Made by a program: the position numbers and the translations under genes
The notes under the pieces: model-generated
What the model saw: the letters and a program-made list of their open reading frames with translations, nothing else
Databases searched by the model: none
Told to the model about the DNA's origin: nothing
Assembly (NCBI GenBank): GCA_050298595.1
Contig: JBNKUM010000115.1
Coordinates: 32,001 to 96,000, forward strand
DNA length: 64,000 nt
Origin: Gammaproteobacteria bacterium
Lineage (GTDB): Bacteria; Pseudomonadota; Gammaproteobacteria; GCA-001735895
Reading direction: 5' to 3'
Shown here: in pieces, positions 1 to 61,845 of the stretch
Layout: every line of letters starts with the position of its first letter
Position numbering within the stretch: the first letter of the stretch is position 1

Positions 1-1145
1 CCGATGAAAGTGGTAATCATATTGCTAATCTTGCCTCTGCGACCGATTATACTGAGAGTTATCTTCGCCAGTCCCGAGTCTATACGACGGGTATCATTGC
101 AGGATTGGTTGCATTTGCGGTCGGCATCCTACTCATTTACTACTTTATTCAACACTCGTTCAAACCTATGAACAGAATCCTGACGGTGATTGAAAATATC
201 GCTGTCGGTAATCTAACGGATGAAGTGATAGTAAAATCCAACGATGAATTTGGTCGTGTCATGAAAGGCTTACAGGATATGCAAAGCAAACTTAAAGGTA
301 TGATCGACGATATCAACCTGGCAAGTCAGCAGATAGACTCATCGGCCGAACATCTGGAAACCGTTACCAATGAATCGAGTAAGCGGGTGAATACTCAAAG
401 CCAGATTACCGACCAACTGGTGAATGATATTGATCAGTTAATCAACGCCTCTAATAATGTCACCCAGGCAGCAACTGAAGCCAATAGTGAAACCAGTGGT
501 GCCGTTAACGAAGTCAGTAATGGTCGCAATATCATTACCGATGGAGTGAAAGCAATACAGAATATCTCTGATCAGGTACATCGAGCAGAAGAAGTGGTGA
601 AAAGTGTACAGAATGAAACACAGAATATTGGCTCAGTGCTGGATGTCATCAAGGGTATTGCCGAACAGACCAACCTGCTGGCGTTGAATGCTGCTATAGA
701 AGCAGCGCGCGCTGGTGAACAGGGGCGTGGATTTTCTGTAGTGGCGGATGAGGTTAGAACCCTCGCCAGCCGGACCTCACAGTCCACTCAGGAGATTGAA
801 GCTATGATAGAAAGCCTGCAGGCAGGGTCTGCAGATGCAGTAGAAAAAATGCAGGGCAGTATCAAAATGGTTGAAAAGGGTGTGGAAATAGTCAATCTTG
901 CCGATCAATCCTTTGACACTATCGCCCAGTCGATGACCTCTATCAGCGCAAAGAACGAAAGTATATCTAGCGCTTCAGAAAACCAGATGTCTATATCACG
1001 TACCATGCATGATAATGTCCAGACTATATCTTCTGCTACCAATTCAACATTGGAAGGCAATCAAATAACTGTGACCTCCACCGAAGAATTAATAGCGCTG
1101 GCAGAAAAACTGAAGCAGAAGGTTAAACAGTTTACTACCTCCTGA
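1..1145 (+). CDS. Methyl-accepting chemotaxis protein (5'-truncated by the window)
   Basis: Frame is open from position 3. TM helix, then HAMP (GNLT...DEFG) and the MCP signalling hairpin [34 protein letters not shown]. Confidence 0.95.
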
Positions 1146-8248: not shown

Positions 8249-9628
8249 TCAGTCAGCAAATAATTTACCTGGATTCATGATCCCTAAAGGATCCAGACAT
8301 TGCTTAATCTGCTTCATCACCACGACACCATCAGGATGCTCCTTAGCCAGAAAATCTATCTTACCCATGCCTATGCCATGCTCTCCCGTACAGGTGCCTT
8401 CCATCGATAGAGCCAGATTGACCAGCTTATGATTGATCGCTTCTGCTTCTGCAATTTCATCAGGATTATTGGCATCAGGTAAAATCAGCAGATGAAAATT
8501 ACCATCACCAACATGTCCTAAAACAGTAGCAGTTAAACTGGTTTGCTCAATCATCTCTTCTGTTTTAGCTATACATTCGGCTAATCTCGAAATCGGGACA
8601 CATACATCGGTGGTCACAGGTCTACATCCGGGACGCGATGAGACGGCTGCCGGGTAAAGGTCATGTCTTGCCTTTAATATCCGGTTACGATCTTCTGTTT
8701 TAGTGGCCCACTCGAAGGACTCCCCACCCTCTTCACTGGCGATCTGCTGCACCTGCTCCGCCTGTTCTTCAACACCAGCACTGGAACCATGAAACTCCAT
8801 AAATAAATGAGGCAATTCAGGATAATTCATTTTGGAGTATTGATTGATAGCTCGTATTGAAGTGCTATCGAGTAATTCCATACGTGCAACAGGAATACCG
8901 TATTGTATCGCCTGTATTACCGTATTTACGGCTGCCTGAATATTGGGAAAGCTGCATACAGCTGAAGATATTGCCTCTTGCAGGCCATGAAGTTTAACGG
9001 TTAACTCGGTGATAACTCCAAGCGTACCTTCAGAGCCGATGAATAAATGTGTAAGGTCGTAACCTGCAGAGGATTTACGCGCACGCCCACCTGTTTTGAT
9101 AATACTGCCATCAGGCAGCACCACAGTAAGCCCACGAACATTTTCACGAATTGTGCCATAGCGAACCGTATTGGTACCGGATGCACCCGTCGCAGCCATA
9201 CCGCCTAAAGTCGCATCAGCACCAGGGTCGACCGAAAAAAACAACCCGGTATCTCGAATTTCATGAGCGAGTTGGTATCGCGTCACACCGGCCTCAACCT
9301 GACAATCCATATCCTCCTTATTCACTCGTAAAATTTGATTCATCTGTGTCAGGTCTATACTCAAACCGCCCTGTAACGCCTGAACATGGCCTTCTATAGA
9401 AGAACCTGCCCCAAAAGGGATAACAGGCAACCGATATTGATGACAGATTTTCAGTGCGTCACTAACCTCTTCCGTACTACGCGCGAATAGCACTGCATCA
9501 GGAGCGTGAGTGTCATGTCCACCTTCATCCCGGCCATGTTGTTCAAGCAAGCTCTGGTTTGTGGTCAACTGATCCCCGAAGCGGGATTGAAGTTGATTTA
9601 ATGCTTGCGATAATTCATCTTGGTTCAT
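8249..9628 (-). CDS. FAD-linked oxidase (D-lactate dehydrogenase/GlcD-like)
   Basis: PFGAGSSIEG, DPGADATLGGM, GYDLTHLFIGSEGTLG, GHVGDGNFH, GEHGIG, DPLGIMNPGK. Confidence 0.9.
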   Translation of the reverse strand: MNQDELSQALNQLQSRFGDQLTTNQSLLEQHGRDEGGHDTHAPDAVLFARSTEEVSDALKICHQYRLPVIPFGAGSSIEGHVQALQGGLSIDLTQMNQILRVNKEDMDCQVEAGVTRYQLAHEIRDTGLFFSVDPGADATLGGMAATGASGTNTVRYGTIRENVRGLTVVLPDGSIIKTGGRARKSSAGYDLTHLFIGSEGTLGVITELTVKLHGLQEAISSAVCSFPNIQAAVNTVIQAIQYGIPVARMELLDSTSIRAINQYSKMNYPELPHLFMEFHGSSAGVEEQAEQVQQIASEEGGESFEWATKTEDRNRILKARHDLYPAAVSSRPGCRPVTTDVCVPISRLAECIAKTEEMIEQTSLTATVLGHVGDGNFHLLILPDANNPDEIAEAEAINHKLVNLALSMEGTCTGEHGIGMGKIDFLAKEHPDGVVVMKQIKQCLDPLGIMNPGKLFAD

Positions 9629-17082: not shown

Positions 17083-17353
17083 CTTGCTTCGTAGCTACTG
17101 ACGAGTACGCGTGCAAGTAACTTCCTTTTACGCGAAAAGAAAGATACCAAAGAAAGCACGCCCCACAATCCCTTGATTATTTCGGGCTTCCGGCCCTCCA
17201 CCCTCCGGGCCGCACTGTGTGCGTTCAAAAATGTTCCAGACATTTTTGTCGTCAAAATAGCACTCACATCGCGGTCGGCTCAGACGCGCGTCCCACCGCG
17301 CTGAGCCTCAAATGGCATCCATGCCTTTTGACCCCGATCTGAACATTATTTTG
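17083..17353. repeat. GC-rich multi-hairpin element with GGA loops on the minus strand
   Basis: Hairpins at 17121-17143, 17191-17212, 17226-17248 (perfect 9 bp), 17277-17307 and 17308-17331; enclosing stem 17253-17259/17347-17353. Confidence 0.65.
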
Positions 17354-19935: not shown

Positions 19936-22900
19936 ATGTCAGGGACAAAAAAATTTCTAATAATAGCCTTTTATTCATTGCTTTTAGTGGGCTGTGGTGG
20001 TGGCTCTTCTAACACTGATGATAGTTTCTCACATAGCTCATTCGAGTTTTCATTTAATGGCACTAATTCCAAAGCGGTTCTGGATAAGGAGAACGCCTCT
20101 AACTTCCTTGCTTCAATTTTTTTAAGTGGTTTTATCCTGACGGAAGATTCCCTCGCAACTTCTAGCAGTGCACACTCAGATGTATCATCCTATCTAGCGC
20201 CTGGAAACTTTACTGGATTAAAGTTGGATAAAACTCGCTATGCTTCCAGGGGTGGTAGCATTTCAAACAAAATAATTGATACTGAGGACCATTCTTGCAA
20301 TTCCAGCGGACATTACAGTATCAAGTACTTCAGTAGTTCTACAACAGAATACCAAATGAGGATAGAGTACGTTAACTGTATTGAAGGAATGACAGGTGAA
20401 TTAAATGGAATAATCAATATCTCCTATGTACATGAATTATACGATGGACAGCCAGCCTATTATCCCAGTTCAGGGAAGATGACTTACTCGAATTTTTCAG
20501 TAAATACTGGTGTAAACAGGATTGAGGTAACTGGAAGTGTAGATATGACATTCCTGAACTATTGTCCCCAGGTGTATGTACATAACTTAATTATTCGTAA
20601 CACTTCAACGTTGGAACAAACCAGATATGAGAATCTTACGACTAATGTCTCATGTAATAATCAATACACCATGGAAGGTAGAATTTACAGTTCCAACTTT
20701 GGGTATATAGATGTCAGTACTCAGAAACCACTTGAATATTCACGAGATAACCAGCTTATATTTCCTGATATCGATGGAAACCTGAAGCTAAGCGGAAAAA
20801 ATTCTTTAGTCGAAGTAGATTTCAGTAGTGCATGGCATGAAAACTCAGAAACAATCACATATATCAGCCCAAATTACTATGGAGTTTTACCTACAACTAC
20901 CTTTCGTTTTGATCTAGATGGTGACCATAGTAACGATTATATTTTAAGCAGTCCAACTGAATACGCACTCCCTTTTTTCACTGGCGGAACTTTCCTTGAT
21001 TCTGATGGCGATAAAATGCTGGATATATGGGAAGACTTTTATGGGCTTGATCGGTATAACCCAGATGATGCGGATATAGATTCGGACAGTGATGGATACT
21101 CCAACTACGGAGAATATATCGGTTTTGGACATCCTCGCGATTCTCTCATTCCCCCAGAATTCAAAGGAACAGCCACCACATTTATTGAGTCAGATAATTC
21201 AGCTGATGTTAGAAAAGGGCAGGATTTGACATTAAATTTAAAGACTCAAATCAATAGTGAAAAACTACCTGGCTCATATTTTCTGAAAGTTCAAGTTTCT
21301 GAAAATGCAGAATTCATTCAACCGTCAAATGACCAATGTGCAGAATATTATTTAGAGAATTCCAAGAAAGTTTGCTTGCTGAAACTAAGTGTTGCATACA
21401 GTAACGGAACTAATGAACGTACTAGCATGTACAAACTAATCATCCAGTCATTAGATGAGACACCCATAGACTACGTGATCGAACCCGACTATGGGTACTT
21501 CAGTAATCAAAACTATGGGGAACCGGAATTATCAAGCACAATCACATTCCAGAAGCGATTGTCGGATCTAGAGTTAACTTATTTCTCTCCTACTACATCT
21601 TACAAATTTGACCACCTGACTGTCGGCCAGATTGAGCTGCGAGAAATTGAATTCGCAAACAATGGTCCAGACCAGGCTAATAACGTAGTAATTCGGGTAA
21701 CTTTCCCTCCTGAAATATCAGTAGAATCAGCATATATGACCTTTGAGCAAGCCTACCTGCGGTGGCAAGATTGTGAGGTTATGAATAACCAGGTTATATG
21801 TAGGTTGGATCAGCTTCCCAGCACAGGCTGGAACAATGAAGGGACGATACGAATCAATGAACAAGCGAACACTGATGGTCTCTCAACGGTATATGCTAAG
21901 ATCGAATCTGATTCTGTAGAGGTTACTAATGACAACAACCTGAATTCTACCGAAGTATTCCTCGGGAACTCTTTAGACACTATACAGCCTTTAATCGACC
22001 AGGCCGAACCAGGCGATACTGTTTTAATACCTCAAGGTTATTATACTGGAGGATCATTAATGGTTGATGGTAAAGCACTTCATCTTTACTCGGAAAATGG
22101 GCTCGGCTCAGTAAAAATCGGCAGATATGGAGCCTCGTTCTTAAATGAAGGAAAGATTGTGATTTTGGACCCAGAAACAGGGTCTACGATTAATGGGTTT
22201 ATCTTTATTGGCCCGGTGCTAACTATTTCGGGTACAGTAACAGTTTCAAACAATAAGTTTTATTCGAATTTTTATTCAGCTGCTGCTGACAATTCGATTG
22301 ATGATTGCTCCCCGAGCATGTTTCAAATAAACCCTACCCTGAATTCAGTAATTGAAAAAAATTACTTTGATTGTACTTTAATAGAAGCCCATGAATATGA
22401 TTGGTATGATGGACATACTGATTTAACTATTCGAAACAACATATTCAATACTAACCCTAATACTGGGACTTCCTTGGACACATCGGCTTTCATTTATTTT
22501 ACAGGCGTTGGTATGTATAACACGGAAAAAAACGGCGTCGTTAATATCATTAACAATACGTTTCTTAATTCTGACAACCCAGCTTTATTCACTATTCCTG
22601 GAGCGAATATGGGGAACATATCTGAGATTAAGAATAATATTTTTTATAATGTTGCAAAACCGATAGTCCATACTGGATCATATGAAACAGAGTTTTCAAT
22701 AGAGGGGAACATCTTCGGAGCTTATAACGAAATATTACCTAACTTGCCACCTTCTAATCTATTCGGAGATCCTCAAATAGATCCGGTCAGTTTCTATCCT
22801 CTTCAGAATTCTATAGTCATTGACAGCGGAGTATCTATTTCGGGATTGATCTCAGATTATCTTGGGAATATCAGGCCACGCGATGGAAACAATGATGGAA

Positions 22901-22938
22901 ACCCTGAAATTGACATTGGTGCGATCGAACTACAATAA
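19936..22938 (+). CDS. Large surface lipoprotein (Ca-binding DxDxD repeats, DUF11-like Ig domain, beta-helix, choice-of-anchor-Q-like C-terminus)
   Basis: Lipobox LVGC followed by GGGSS; DSDGD..WE..GLD..DSDSDGYSN; NNGPDQANNV; NN-rich repeats; IDSG..DYLGNIRP..DIGAIE. Confidence 0.75.
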   Translation: MSGTKKFLIIAFYSLLLVGCGGGSSNTDDSFSHSSFEFSFNGTNSKAVLDKENASNFLASIFLSGFILTEDSLATSSSAHSDVSSYLAPGNFTGLKLDKTRYASRGGSISNKIIDTEDHSCNSSGHYSIKYFSSSTTEYQMRIEYVNCIEGMTGELNGIINISYVHELYDGQPAYYPSSGKMTYSNFSVNTGVNRIEVTGSVDMTFLNYCPQVYVHNLIIRNTSTLEQTRYENLTTNVSCNNQYTMEGRIYSSNFGYIDVSTQKPLEYSRDNQLIFPDIDGNLKLSGKNSLVEVDFSSAWHENSETITYISPNYYGVLPTTTFRFDLDGDHSNDYILSSPTEYALPFFTGGTFLDSDGDKMLDIWEDFYGLDRYNPDDADIDSDSDGYSNYGEYIGFGHPRDSLIPPEFKGTATTFIESDNSADVRKGQDLTLNLKTQINSEKLPGSYFLKVQVSENAEFIQPSNDQCAEYYLENSKKVCLLKLSVAYSNGTNERTSMYKLIIQSLDETPIDYVIEPDYGYFSNQNYGEPELSSTITFQKRLSDLELTYFSPTTSYKFDHLTVGQIELREIEFANNGPDQANNVVIRVTFPPEISVESAYMTFEQAYLRWQDCEVMNNQVICRLDQLPSTGWNNEGTIRINEQANTDGLSTVYAKIESDSVEVTNDNNLNSTEVFLGNSLDTIQPLIDQAEPGDTVLIPQGYYTGGSLMVDGKALHLYSENGLGSVKIGRYGASFLNEGKIVILDPETGSTINGFIFIGPVLTISGTVTVSNNKFYSNFYSAAADNSIDDCSPSMFQINPTLNSVIEKNYFDCTLIEAHEYDWYDGHTDLTIRNNIFNTNPNTGTSLDTSAFIYFTGVGMYNTEKNGVVNIINNTFLNSDNPALFTIPGANMGNISEIKNNIFYNVAKPIVHTGSYETEFSIEGNIFGAYNEILPNLPPSNLFGDPQIDPVSFYPLQNSIVIDSGVSISGLISDYLGNIRPRDGNNDGNPEIDIGAIELQ

Positions 22939-23049
22939 GTAGTCGACCCTGAAAAATACTACAACCTATTGATAATATTGAATAAACTTGTGAAAACAGG
23001 TGATTAAAACGACCAGGAAAAGTAAAATAAGTCCTTAAACACTATACAA

Positions 23050-24259
23050 GGGACCTTGGAGCACCTGGCAAATCGATTCGTTTAATGGTTGGTTTATTAC
23101 TTTTAAAACAACTGGAAAACTTAAGTGATGAAGAAGCTGTCGTGCAGTGGAAACGTAATCCCTACTACCAGTCGTTTTGTGGCATGACAGAGTATCGGCC
23201 CAAAATACCCTGCGATAGTACCGGACTGGTTCATTTCAGAAAGCGCATAGGCAAACAGGGTGTTGAAAAAATATTCCAGATGAGTGTTGCTCTGCATGGA
23301 AGAGCTGCCCTGGAAAATAACGTCAACATCGATACGACTGTACACGACTGCAAGGATGCAGGAGGTAGAGCGAAGCAGGAAGCCAGAGCCGAGGAAAAAA
23401 ACATCACCTATCCAACGGACGCCAAATTGGCGATCAAGATCGTCAATCGTTTAAACAAGCTGGCTAAATTTCATGGTAATCAGCAAAGGCGAACCTTCGT
23501 TAAAGAAGTCAAAAATCTACGTCTGTCGATCCGTCATTTCCGTCATGTTAAAAAAAGAGCAAAAGCGAAAAAAGCACTGAAGCGTTTAAGAACCATTGCC
23601 CATATTCTCATGCGTGAATTGAGAAGAAAACTACCTCAACCCTGTCTTTTTGAATGCCACCAAAAAGACTTTTTATTTTATGAACAGGTACTGGCACAAC
23701 AACCCAAAGACAAAAACAAAATTTACTCGTTACACGAGCCACAGGCATACTGTATCGCCAAAGGCAAAGATCACAAGCAGTATGAATATGGCAATAAAGT
23801 CTCTATTGCCAGCACCGCTAAAGGTAACATCATAGTAGGTGCTGTCAGTCATGAATTGAATTTGCATGATAGTCATACTTTGCCGACGTGTTAAACCACA
23901 TCGAAGCCTCACGAGGTAAGGCAGTCAAGACAGCGATCTGCGACCGAGGTTACCGAGGTAAGAGCCGGGTCAATGACACCGTCATCCAGCTACCGAAAAA
24001 GCCACTGAAAAGGGATAATCGTTACCAGCGGGACAAGAAAAGAAAGCAATGCAGGCGGCGGGCCGCTATTGAGCCGATCATCGGTCATTTGAAGAGTGAT
24101 TTTCGGTTATCCAGAAACTTTCTCAAAGGCACTGCTGGAGATGAAATAAATCTGCTGATGGCCGCAACTGCCTGGAACCTGAGAAAATGGCTAACAGCCT
24201 TTTTTTGGCCATTATTTTTGTGGCTAAAAATCAGATTTAACACCGTGTGTAGCAATTGA
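23050..24259 (+). pseudogene. IS5 DDE transposase pseudogene
   Basis: IRLMVGLL, DTTV..EKNITYPTD, KIYSLHEP, YEYGNK, DRGYRG, RRAAIEPIIGHLK. N-terminus appears lost, frameshift near 23885, 48-bp insertion at 23345-23392. Confidence 0.88.
23345..23392 (+). repeat. 48-bp in-frame inserted element
   Basis: Removing it restores the conserved DTTVQEKNIT; contains the hairpin CTGCA-AGGA-TGCAG. Confidence 0.8.
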
Positions 24260-24464
24260 GCGCAGAGGCAGCCGGATATTTTGAATATATCTAATCACCT
24301 TGAGAGTTAAAATTTACTCATAATACCTTTTCAGGAACGAGTAAGTATTTATTGAAACTGACTATGCGAAAAGCATATTAAGAGGGAGTGAAATCAACAA
24401 ACACTTTTTTTATATATTTCTATCTATGTACAGCATAAGACTAAATTAAAACCGTAACAAAATT

Positions 24465-43631: not shown

Positions 43632-43653
43632 TCGGGTTCATCCTTGAACCCGA
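43632..43653 (-). other. Perfect hairpin with AGGA loop just after ftsZ
   Basis: Minus strand TCGGGTTCA-AGGA-TGAACCCGA; no U-tract. Confidence 0.6.
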
Positions 43654-61192: not shown

Positions 61193-61433
61193 GTATCGTC
61201 GCAAAACACCACAAGTCAAGTAAAAAGAGCCATTTAGGAATAGAGTTTCTTTAATAACAACAATGACTTAGCAATGCTTTATAAAATAATTATTTAATAG
61301 TCTTTAGAAAACAGAAACTAATCGAGGCAAGTTAAAGTAAAACATTAAGTGTTAGTTATTTCTCGTTTTTTTTGAGAAGAAATAACAATCTGAGGTTGGT
61401 AGTTTTGAGCAGAAAGCGCAGTTTTTATAAAAT

Positions 61434-61771
61434 AAGTCAGCCGATAAGCCGGGTTCTGTCGTGGATAATCATTCATCTGGAATCACTGTCACCAATGACC
61501 CTCAAGCGACCAACCCGAAAGCAGTGCGGGCCGCACCATAGCTCTCCTATTTGGTCTTGCTCCGAGTGGGGTTTACCCTGCCACTACTGTTGCCAGTAGC
61601 GCGGTGCGCTCTTACCGCACCATTTCACCCTTACCATGCAAGGCATGGCGGTATATTTTCTGTGGCACTTTCCGTAGGCTCACGCCCCCCAGGCGTTACC
61701 TGGCACTCTGCCCTATGGAGCCCGGACTTTCCTCCAGCACCTGATGGCACCAGCGATTATCTGGCTGACTT
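61434..61771 (-). ncRNA. rnpB: RNase P RNA (type A)
   Basis: GAGGAAAGTCCGGGCTCC and AGAACCCGGCTTA conserved regions; P1 AAGTCAGCC/GGCTGACTT; lies between rsmI and mraZ. Confidence 0.97.
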
Positions 61772-61845
61772 GGGCGCATAATACAGTAAATTTATAAAAA
61801 AGCCCGCACAATCTGGGTGGATAGCCCCTTCTATTCTGATTTCAG

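Follow-up and report, generated by a model that had tools for sequence, protein, structure and literature searches.

A 48-nucleotide hairpin unit, probably a non-autonomous mobile element, in an IS5-family transposase pseudogene and its relatives across Gammaproteobacteria

Introduction

The window analysed here, a stretch of 64,000 nucleotides from contig JBNKUM010000115.1 (positions 32,001 to 96,000) of the gammaproteobacterial assembly GCA_050298595.1, contains a decayed IS5-family insertion sequence (IS) whose transposase gene holds a 48-nt insert. The insert is probably one copy of a non-autonomous mobile element that entered a dispensable gene, and near-identical units recur in the same genome and in other genera of Gammaproteobacteria. 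The original prediction, made from the letters of the window, had proposed a tiny mobile unit that carries no enzyme of its own. This article describes the host IS, the copies, structure, target sites and distribution of the element, the repeat families that it resembles and the processes that may move it.

The Host Insertion Sequence and the 48-nt Insert

The features of the locus, together with two further GGA-loop features of the window, are collected in Table 1. The transposase is read in two frames, 23085-23894 and 23888-24259 in the program-made list of open reading frames (ORFs), which are split at about 23890; a Pfam search places a DUF772 domain in the N-terminal and a DDE_Tnp_1 domain in the C-terminal part. 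Removal of positions 23345-23392 joins GTACA to GGAA and gives back the conserved motif DTTVQEKNIT, as had been predicted and as direct reading of the sequence bears out. Read in the sense direction of the transposase, the insert adds 16 codons in frame without a stop codon and makes ORF 23085-23894 read DTTVHDCKDAGGRAKQEARAEEKNIT. Its ends are CGAC and GCCGA. The predicted lack of terminal inverted repeats (TIRs) and of more than a 1-nt overlap at the junction was also found: the duplication is at most the single flanking A, so that the boundary can be drawn at either of two positions 1 nt apart. When the window is shuffled, 0 matches to the 48-mer are expected.

Table 1. Features of the insertion locus and related GGA-loop features of the window
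Feature	Position	Strand	Basis or remark
Decayed IS5-family insertion sequence, host of the 48-nt element	22953..24298	+	ORFs, Pfam domains, homologues of 430-465 aa, metagenome contigs
Left target flank ACGACTGTACA	23334..23344	+	Ends in the A preceding the element; first 7 nt repeat the element start
48-nt mini-element	23345..23392 (equally 23344-23391)	+	Direct reading, genome profile search, homologue alignment, natural empty site
5' hairpin, 8-position stem C1-G20, loop AGGA	23345..23364	+	Covariation
Near-invariant 28-nt tail ending GCCGA	23365..23392	+	98-sequence alignment
Right target flank GGAAA	23393..23397	+	Forms CA^GGA with the left flank
Member of a ~270-nt host repeat, hairpin empty	17083..17353	-	Paralogue comparison
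Stand-alone AGGA-loop hairpin GGGTTCA-AGGA-TGAACCC	43632-43653	-	No family-profile match

The insert is not a normal feature of close homologues. A clean 16-residue gap occurs in 39 of 39 aligned IS5 homologues, and the inserted motif DAGGR/GGRAKQ is found in none of the 119 other IS5 transposases among the best 120 of 7017 matches at E<=1e-10, the remaining one being the window's own protein. Public metagenome runs were compared over positions 22900-24300 of the window. A natural empty copy of the IS, ~98% identical, is present on one contig each in runs X5 and X6 of another study; these contigs have 5 differences in 307 nt beside the site and skip exactly 48 nt, from 23343 to 23392. Contigs of run X1 contain the insert with zero differences. 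Each of the four runs shows a 15-40-fold rise in summed contig depth across 23343-23395, and numerous contigs end loosely at 23343/23344 and 23392-23395; together these are the signature of a short high-copy repeat bounded by 23343-23395.

These data bear on a trivial explanation, by which the extra 16 residues would be either a variable loop native to this lineage of transposases or an artefact of assembly. An insert that is in frame and free of stops is what such an origin would leave, but the homologues listed lack it, nearly identical IS copies without it exist in other samples, the X1 contigs reproduce it without a difference, and its family occupies 83 further places in the genome. The gene, moreover, is a pseudogene anyway. 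The homologue alignment and the metagenome contigs refute this explanation, to which we attach practically no probability.

The IS copy of the window lacks one G after 23884, which breaks the frame relative to contigs from other samples, and is also without ~162 nt at 23037 that metagenome copies possess. The host IS would be a pseudogene even without the 48-nt insert. As the transposase gene was already dispensable, preservation of the frame was not under selection at this copy. Positions 23345-23392 are confirmed as a discrete insertion of 48 nt within a transposase pseudogene of the IS5 family.

A Dispersed Family With Filled and Empty Sites

A search with the 1361-nt IS against its own 5.49-Mb assembly gave 46 matches, 43 of them confined to the ~50-nt segment of the element. 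With a profile built from 22 copies, nhmmer found 84 matches (E<0.01) at 62 loci of the same genome, 51 of them near full length; contig C115 holds a single match to the family model, the copy at 23345. Four copies of the genome, including that of the window, are identical over 50 nt. The expectation that copies would be found at unrelated loci was thus borne out by these 62 loci and by those in other genera.

Empty sites were sought by joining the flanks of 46 full-length copies by script and searching the genome with the product. A paralogous empty site that matches across the junction exists for 33 of the 46 copies, gap-free for 29; six of the paired empty sites are trivial neighbours in tandem arrays, and both copies and sites are counted as non-independent events, because host repeats may have multiplied as composites after a single insertion. 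Copies are also nested within other copies, in the form GCGAAGCA^[48 nt]GGAAGCC, and form head-to-tail arrays in which GCCGA of one unit abuts CGCC of the next. Both arrangements follow from the sequence of the element: its own tail contains GCA^GGA and its end reads CGA^, so that new copies fall inside or behind old ones.

The host sites in this genome often belong to other repeat families, many of them GGA-hairpin repeats themselves. A frequent host is a dispersed repeat of ~170 nt with two successive ATGGAT-loop hairpins, whose empty members read GCA-TGGA-TGC and whose filled members hold the 48 nt after the GGA. Examples of this repeat are empty at C15:23723, C19:31769 and C67:9937 and filled at C8:37401, C8:74486 and C114:1019; it is TwoAYGGAY-like in appearance and has no match to the corresponding Rfam model RF01731. 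The original prediction had connected the insert with two other GGA-loop features of the window, and this connection holds for one of them. The feature at 17083-17353 belongs to a host repeat and is empty: the hairpin at 17314-17325 (minus strand), GGCA-TGGA-TGCC, is unoccupied, and paralogues at C80:3095, C21:51070 and C109:22347 hold a 47-nt variant of the element exactly in that hairpin. The feature at 43632-43653 is a GGA-loop hairpin that the family model does not match.

A long parent element was sought in the same genome as a pair of 5' and 3' halves 300-5000 nt apart, and none was found; the only split copies have their halves 85-215 nt apart and are nested. A miniature transposable element with inverted repeats (MITE) mobilised by a DDE transposase was considered and rejected, as the family has neither TIRs nor target-site duplications (TSDs) of at least 2 bp, nor a full-length parent IS in its own genome. 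The filled and empty pairs support the view that the 48-nt family is a discrete, dispersed unit that was mobile at least in the past.

Anatomy of the Element

The structure was examined in a gap-free alignment of 98 copies from many genera. The hairpin CTGCA-AGGA-TGCAG of the original prediction is present and extends, by covariation, to an 8-position stem that begins at nucleotide 1 of the element and closes a 4-nt NGGA loop. The alignment contains 59 double-change cells in this stem, compared with 12.3+-2.6 in shuffles (none of 500 reach the observed value) and 5-12 in slid controls. In the commonest form, pairs 2-3 of the stem (positions 2-3 with 18-19) are tandem G.A mismatches; canonical copies read GCATGGATGC, with G.A/A.G at these stem positions, and variant copies turn the mismatches into Watson-Crick pairs (CGAG/CTCG, CGCC/GGCG, CAAT/ATTG). 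The canonical loop with its closing pairs is CAUGGAUG and the window copy has the loop AAGGAT. On the sense strand G-U pairs occupy 9 cells and C-A/A-C combinations 2, an excess which, with the tandem G.A pairs, indicates that one structured strand is favoured.

The tail adjoins the hairpin with the tetranucleotide GTAG, and most of its columns are at least 90% conserved in the 98 sequences. RNAalifold weakly suggests a second small hairpin in it, GC-AGGAW-GC within a GC/GC pair, which in the window would be GC-AGGAA-GC (23375-23376 with 23382-23383) inside GC/GC (23370-23371 with 23388-23389). The outer pair is GC in 93 sequences and AU in 4, and the inner pairs are double-changed in 1 each. 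Its loop would present the second GGA site, GCAGGAUGC.

Target Sites

The target was defined on 108 unique external copies. The base at -1 is A in 101 of them (94%) and the base at -2 is A in only 2; at +1 there are 76 G and 24 A, and ~78% have G or C at -3/-4. The site is less specific than targets of the TTAC type. The general rule is insertion after an A that is not itself preceded by A, usually with a purine next. The predicted target C^AGGA (equivalently CA^GGA) is the commonest context, with 12 of 94 non-redundant external sites; it is closely followed by TA^AAG (11 of 94), where the loop of a REP-like hairpin of Pseudomonas ends. It is also not the sole target within the genome of the window. 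Copies of the 'CGAC' subtype (24 copies) stand before GGR in 17 cases, typically as CA^GG, after GGA in one and in tandem in three, whereas those of the 'CGCC' subtype (21 copies) stand after GGA in 14 cases and in tandem in four.

The original prediction had further noted that the target resembles the element. For the window copy this stands, since the local alignment score of 16 between the empty site and the element start is reached by only 0.6% of 2000 shuffles. As a rule for the family it was rejected: over the 94 sites the mean z is 0.30 and 5% exceed z 2.

A resemblance of this kind is what would be expected if 48-nt indels arose without a dedicated enzyme, through gene conversion or template switching among GGA hairpins of similar sequence in the course of replication or repair, the patch being copied from another hairpin repeat. 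The GGA-hairpin repeats among the hosts in the own genome fit such a process, as does the outcome of the enzyme searches described below, which gave no candidate. However, the boundaries are identical to the nucleotide in the 108 unique copies from many genera, junction homology amounts to just 1 nt, similarity between target and element is not general, and insertions are also found in unrelated unique sequence (valS, pglX and the IS5 gene). We regard template switching as very unlikely.

Distribution Across Genomes

A 21-nt core motif (at most one mismatch) was found in 8 of the 13 congeneric genomes compared with that of the window, with 0-41 matches each; in the other genera of the family, 2 of 11 genomes contain it. 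Of 400 genomes drawn evenly across Gammaproteobacteria 20 have it, and a reversed-pattern control gave 0 there. At least 117 stretches with near-identical 48-nt units were collected from named genomes, among them those of Pseudomonas/Ectopseudomonas, Shewanella, Marinobacterium, Thiohalomonas, Thiohalophilus, Sedimenticola, Endozoicomonas, Paraglaciecola and Pseudoalteromonas, of Cellvibrionaceae, of a metagenome-assembled genome (MAG) of Methylococcaceae and of a tubeworm symbiont. Complete genomes hold 5-13 core motifs each. Six plasmid records carry the element and the phage records searched gave zero matches. Escherichia coli is largely without the family (2 of 5426 complete genomes).

One gammaproteobacterial MAG (L047, L051, L111) has long head-to-tail arrays of ~47-48-nt GGA-hairpin units, at least nine in L051, which are read through as a spurious ORF of 248 aa and show a likeness to multivalent GGA-hairpin RNA. 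A translated tandem array used as protein query matched 6 small ORFs of 88-121 aa, in a search that is insensitive to single copies in long proteins.

Copies Inside Genes

Five of the six frames of the 48-nt element are open. Two open sense frames encode the hydrophilic peptides DCKDAGGRAKQEARA and TARMQEVERSRKPEP, and the antisense peptides are hydrophobic and contain Cys. The length of 48 nt and the five open frames mean that copies can survive inside genes, although in the window the preserved frame is a by-product. Such copies are rare in the genome of the window (1-3 of 84): ORFs of at least 150 aa contain 3 of the 84 matches, and the sole convincing case is the IS copy itself.

In the valS gene of a Chromatiales MAG (L095), a composite insert lengthens the anticodon-binding domain of ValRS by 33 residues; the 48-nt element is nested there in another GGA-hairpin unit of ~51 nt. 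The valS gene of the window's own genome is 56% identical, has a single 33-residue gap at the insert and is hence empty. The ~51-nt unit combines a CAGGGAC-type loop with a GTCGCG...GGCA|GGA...GCGACC tail (L095:612-671 with flanks, L041, L073, L116); the 48-nt element occupies its site GGCA^GGA, and the unit accompanies it into valS and into a gene for an E1 dehydrogenase. In the latter, from a Methylococcaceae MAG (L116), the element probably lies in frame, judging from a Pfam match that extends over both sides of it; phmmer aligned the downstream part only.

An in-frame copy in pglX, annotated as the gene of a BREX-1 methyltransferase, is carried by the Salmonella IncR plasmid NZ_CP133280.1 (L179:3001-3049). 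It recurs on a plasmid of Moellerella and, among 5426 complete E. coli genomes, in 2 (records include NZ_CP093250.1, E. coli ZF34 and ZF31). PglX there reads DCMDAGGRATQDAKA, which confirms for this protein the statement in the original prediction that peptides of the HDCxDAGGRAxQE kind occur in unrelated proteins. The empty site, TTCAATGCAGA^CAACC, is found in the 88%-identical pglX of E. coli cq9, where it was located by eye since MAFFT scattered the gaps. A separate 30-nt indel distinguishes the element-bearing allele from the nearest E. coli pglX just upstream. All four in-gene copies, that of the window included, are in sense orientation.

Relation to Known Repeats

The Rfam searches, made for the window at gathering thresholds, for 7 loci at E<=1 and for positions 23300-23440 of the window (141 nt) at E<=10, gave no family that matches the element. 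The 17-nt core string is absent from the searchable papers, and no published description was found in them, in line with the original prediction that the system is undescribed; the repeat-list supplements of PMC3733652 and of the TwoAYGGAY preprint lay outside this search. The literature on small nested or in-frame repeats covers repetitive extragenic palindromes (REPs), REPINs, Rickettsia palindromic elements (RPEs), MITEs and TwoAYGGAY RNAs, none of it describing the 48-nt unit. The family belongs with mobile DNA of the hairpin-repeat type, in which its size, exactness, self-nesting, conservation across orders and tolerance by proteins stand out.

With REPs and REPINs the element shares very short hairpin repeats in tens of copies that are mostly intergenic and occasionally in genes, as well as the lack of TIRs and TSDs. 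The resemblance is closest for the CGTC REPs, which have a stem of 8-9 bp and a loop of 4-5 nt, occur occasionally in genes and flank no transposase gene (Di Nocera et al., 2013, PMC3733652). REPs have a conserved GTAG (or CGTC) at the 5' end of the palindrome; a conserved GTAG abuts the hairpin of the 48-nt element too, but follows it immediately on the 3' side when the structured strand is read, and the complement reads CTAC 5' of the stem. In contrast to REPs, the element has an invariant, non-palindromic tail of 28 nt and a fixed length of 48 nt, and unlike in REPINs, both orientations are combined in just 2 of 62 copy clusters. REP families are usually specific to a species or genus, whereas this element is near identical across orders.

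The RPEs are longer, about 100-150 bp in the case of RPE-1, and belong to another lineage; they are set beside the 48-nt element by description. Like it, they are small repeats found in frame in genes that are probably still functional (PMC3733652); the corresponding genes here are valS, pglX and probably that of the E1 dehydrogenase. The small dispersed repeats SDR4-6 of filamentous cyanobacteria are reportedly, from work by Elhai et al. of 2008 in Genome Res, 21-27 nt long, mobile in appearance and located inside other repeats or hairpins. They share with the 48-nt element a size below 100 nt and nesting, but come from another phylum with an unrelated sequence, and are likened to it by description.

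The TwoAYGGAY RNAs (RF01731) resemble the element in structure. They have AYGGAY-loop hairpins with tandem G.A stems, are multi-copy in Pseudomonadota and are proposed to bind Csr/Rsm proteins, having been matched to a CsrA-binding motif model (PMC4333381); they vary in copy number, in an unexplained 'mobile-element-like' expansion (bioRxiv 10.64898/2026.09.22.753630). Their model has 168 positions, compared with a 48-nt unit of one AYGGAY hairpin plus tail, and the window loop AAGGAT misfits AYGGAY. The precise filled and empty sites of the 48-nt element have no reported equivalent in the accessible passages on TwoAYGGAY. RF01731 gave 0 matches of at least 43 bits in the own genome, in a search whose model was silent in 14 control genomes as well.

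A unit of 48 nt with exact boundaries, nesting and seamless sites is near the lower size limit of mobile DNA, and a mobilising activity is known for almost no elements this small. The family is also unusual in being near identical across orders, in being translated within valS and pglX, and in carrying two GGA hairpins of putative CsrA/RsmA type. It gives a concrete means of testing transposition as the way in which TwoAYGGAY and similar GGA-hairpin repeats spread. In annotation, the family accounts for odd 16-residue inserts resembling DCxDAGGRAxQ and for spurious small ORFs across arrays.

How the Element May Move

The reading that we consider likely is that a non-autonomous mobile element of 48 nt, of which 23345-23392 is a copy, inserted in the dispensable IS5 transposase gene. 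The element would be a strand-specific unit, composed of the 5'-terminal NGGA-loop hairpin and the invariant tail with its small GGA hairpin, and its insertion would add exactly 48 nt after an A, with no inverted ends and no target duplication and with precise empty sites. As it encodes nothing and has no linked gene, it would move in trans. The anatomy suggests that a conserved strand-transferase acts on the element as a single-stranded hairpin, possibly by the HUH/Y1-like logic of IS200/IS605 and REP-RAYT (REP-associated tyrosine transposase) systems, in which the target resembles the 3' end of the element. Strand transfer of the HUH type, our leading guess, fits best in view of the absent TIRs and TSDs, the seamless sites, the single structured strand, the terminal hairpin and the target that resembles the 3' end.

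We infer the single-strand mechanism, the class of enzyme and any present activity from these properties; within this reading a Y1 enzyme as the mover is a tentative proposal that we think less likely than not, and the recombinase of the original prediction is likewise a guess. Elements of the IS200/IS605 group share with the 48-nt unit the lack of TIRs and TSDs, a terminal hairpin, a structure specific to one strand, seamless empty sites and insertion on the 3' side of a short sequence like their 3' end, but differ from it, which has one clear hairpin, a weak target (mainly one A and not a conserved tetra- or pentanucleotide), no replication-strand bias and no cognate TnpA found.

The genome of the window contains 26 matches to Y1_Tnp (IS200/RAYT), compared with 1-17 in most congeners. 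Many of the 26 lie in ORFs of 210-290 aa with weak RAYT-like scores, e.g., C94:908-1240, C97:15692-16015 and C101:121621-121941. No RAYT is flanked by copies of the element. The families of genes that neighbour the element at 117 external loci are generic ones only (ABC-F, histidine kinase, AcrB, GGDEF-EAL, LysR), and none of the genes bracketed by inverted copies is transposase-like, judged from ORFs. With the origin taken to be at base 1, a replication-strand bias would fit 10 of the 12 copies of one complete genome, but copies in the complete genomes are too few for a decision.

Several observations weigh against the reading of a mobile element or against its mechanism. Mobility is deduced from the comparison of filled and empty sites, movement itself not having been observed, and the possible amplification of host repeats after one insertion applies to this comparison. 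Near identity across orders could reflect selection on function instead of ongoing transposition. Folding energies are unremarkable (z -0.9 to +0.2), so that the case for structure rests on covariation, and a clear hairpin stands at only one end of each element. Targets are not enriched in hairpin loops predicted from minimum-free-energy folds (20 of 94, compared with 74 of 415 control BA^R sites). A lagging-strand mechanism like that of IS200/IS605 predicts a strand bias, and none is seen relative to local GC skew in this draft genome (30 versus 22 loci). As to the enzyme, Y1_Tnp is present in 13 of 13 congeners including the 5 without the element, only 1 of the 26 matches in the own genome lies within 5 kb of a copy (at 215 bp), and in five other element-bearing genomes full copies occur at 1 of 15 Y1 loci (~3.3 kb each). 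An association with RAYT genes, for which the original prediction had proposed a phylogenetic profile, is supported neither by the distribution of Y1_Tnp over 30 genomes nor by its placement. The element nevertheless provides a defined substrate, a hairpin with an invariant tail that inserts after A, for an enzyme search.

A Possible Role as a CsrA/RsmA-Binding Module

CsrA and RsmE bind GGA-containing hairpins of a known consensus. Each unit has two GGA motifs in hairpin loops, the second in the weakly suggested hairpin of the tail, and in sequence the pair looks like a bidentate CsrA site. The element may then be above all a functional RNA, a site for a CsrA/RsmA dimer with GGA hairpins ~24 nt apart, for which mobility would be secondary. 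Its strong conservation and wide spread would then be the outcome of selection for bringing in, or sponging, Csr/Rsm control. This proposal is compatible with mobility at the DNA level and opposes only a selfish, functionless element.

The loop CAUGGAUG and the second site GCAGGAUGC resemble the consensus, AYGGAY loops with tandem G.A stems also define the TwoAYGGAY RNAs, and the tail is near-invariant across orders. Against this, no Csr/Rsm or TwoAYGGAY model of Rfam matches the element, and the window copy sits in a pseudogene, where no such role is possible. The sense orientation of all four in-gene copies would suit an RNA role, but can be explained by the hydrophilic sense and hydrophobic, Cys-rich antisense peptides; moreover, no preference for co-orientation with flanking genes was found (++ 15, -- 17, +- 15, -+ 11, on crude ORF calls in which 21 'inside' cases are probably spurious array ORFs).

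The genome has two csrA genes, and at one of them (C91:8444-9311), tRNA-Ser(GCT) and a terminator come after csrA (9156-9311, minus strand); three copies lie ~230-650 nt past this tRNA on the same strand, among other GGA hairpins. One locus near csrA among 62 is about what chance would give (estimate ~0.05), and the neighbourhood of the three copies may be fortuitous. On balance, we consider a primarily RNA-based function possible but doubtful.

A further, more speculative combination, to which we give a low probability, is that a pan-gammaproteobacterial module with two GGA hairpins of Csr/Rsm type builds, extends and reshuffles multivalent CsrA/RsmA arrays and is moved by a conserved, so far unrecognised and gene-unlinked activity, one on single-stranded DNA or an RNA-templated one. 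In that case the preference for GGA sites, including those of the element itself, would drop ready-made CsrA sites into transcripts and proteins, a new class of ultra-small mobile DNA would have a part in how a global post-transcriptional regulon evolves, and the expansion of TwoAYGGAY-like repeats might also be accounted for.

Other RNA Features

Two matches to Rfam models concern other RNAs. A group II intron model (D1-D4) matches L038:163-297 (C8) with 52 bits, above its gathering score, ~1.2 kb from the tandem array at C8:18378-18521. In the window, the only Rfam match at gathering thresholds is a bacterial class A RNase P RNA at 61429-61772 on the minus strand, with 343 bits.

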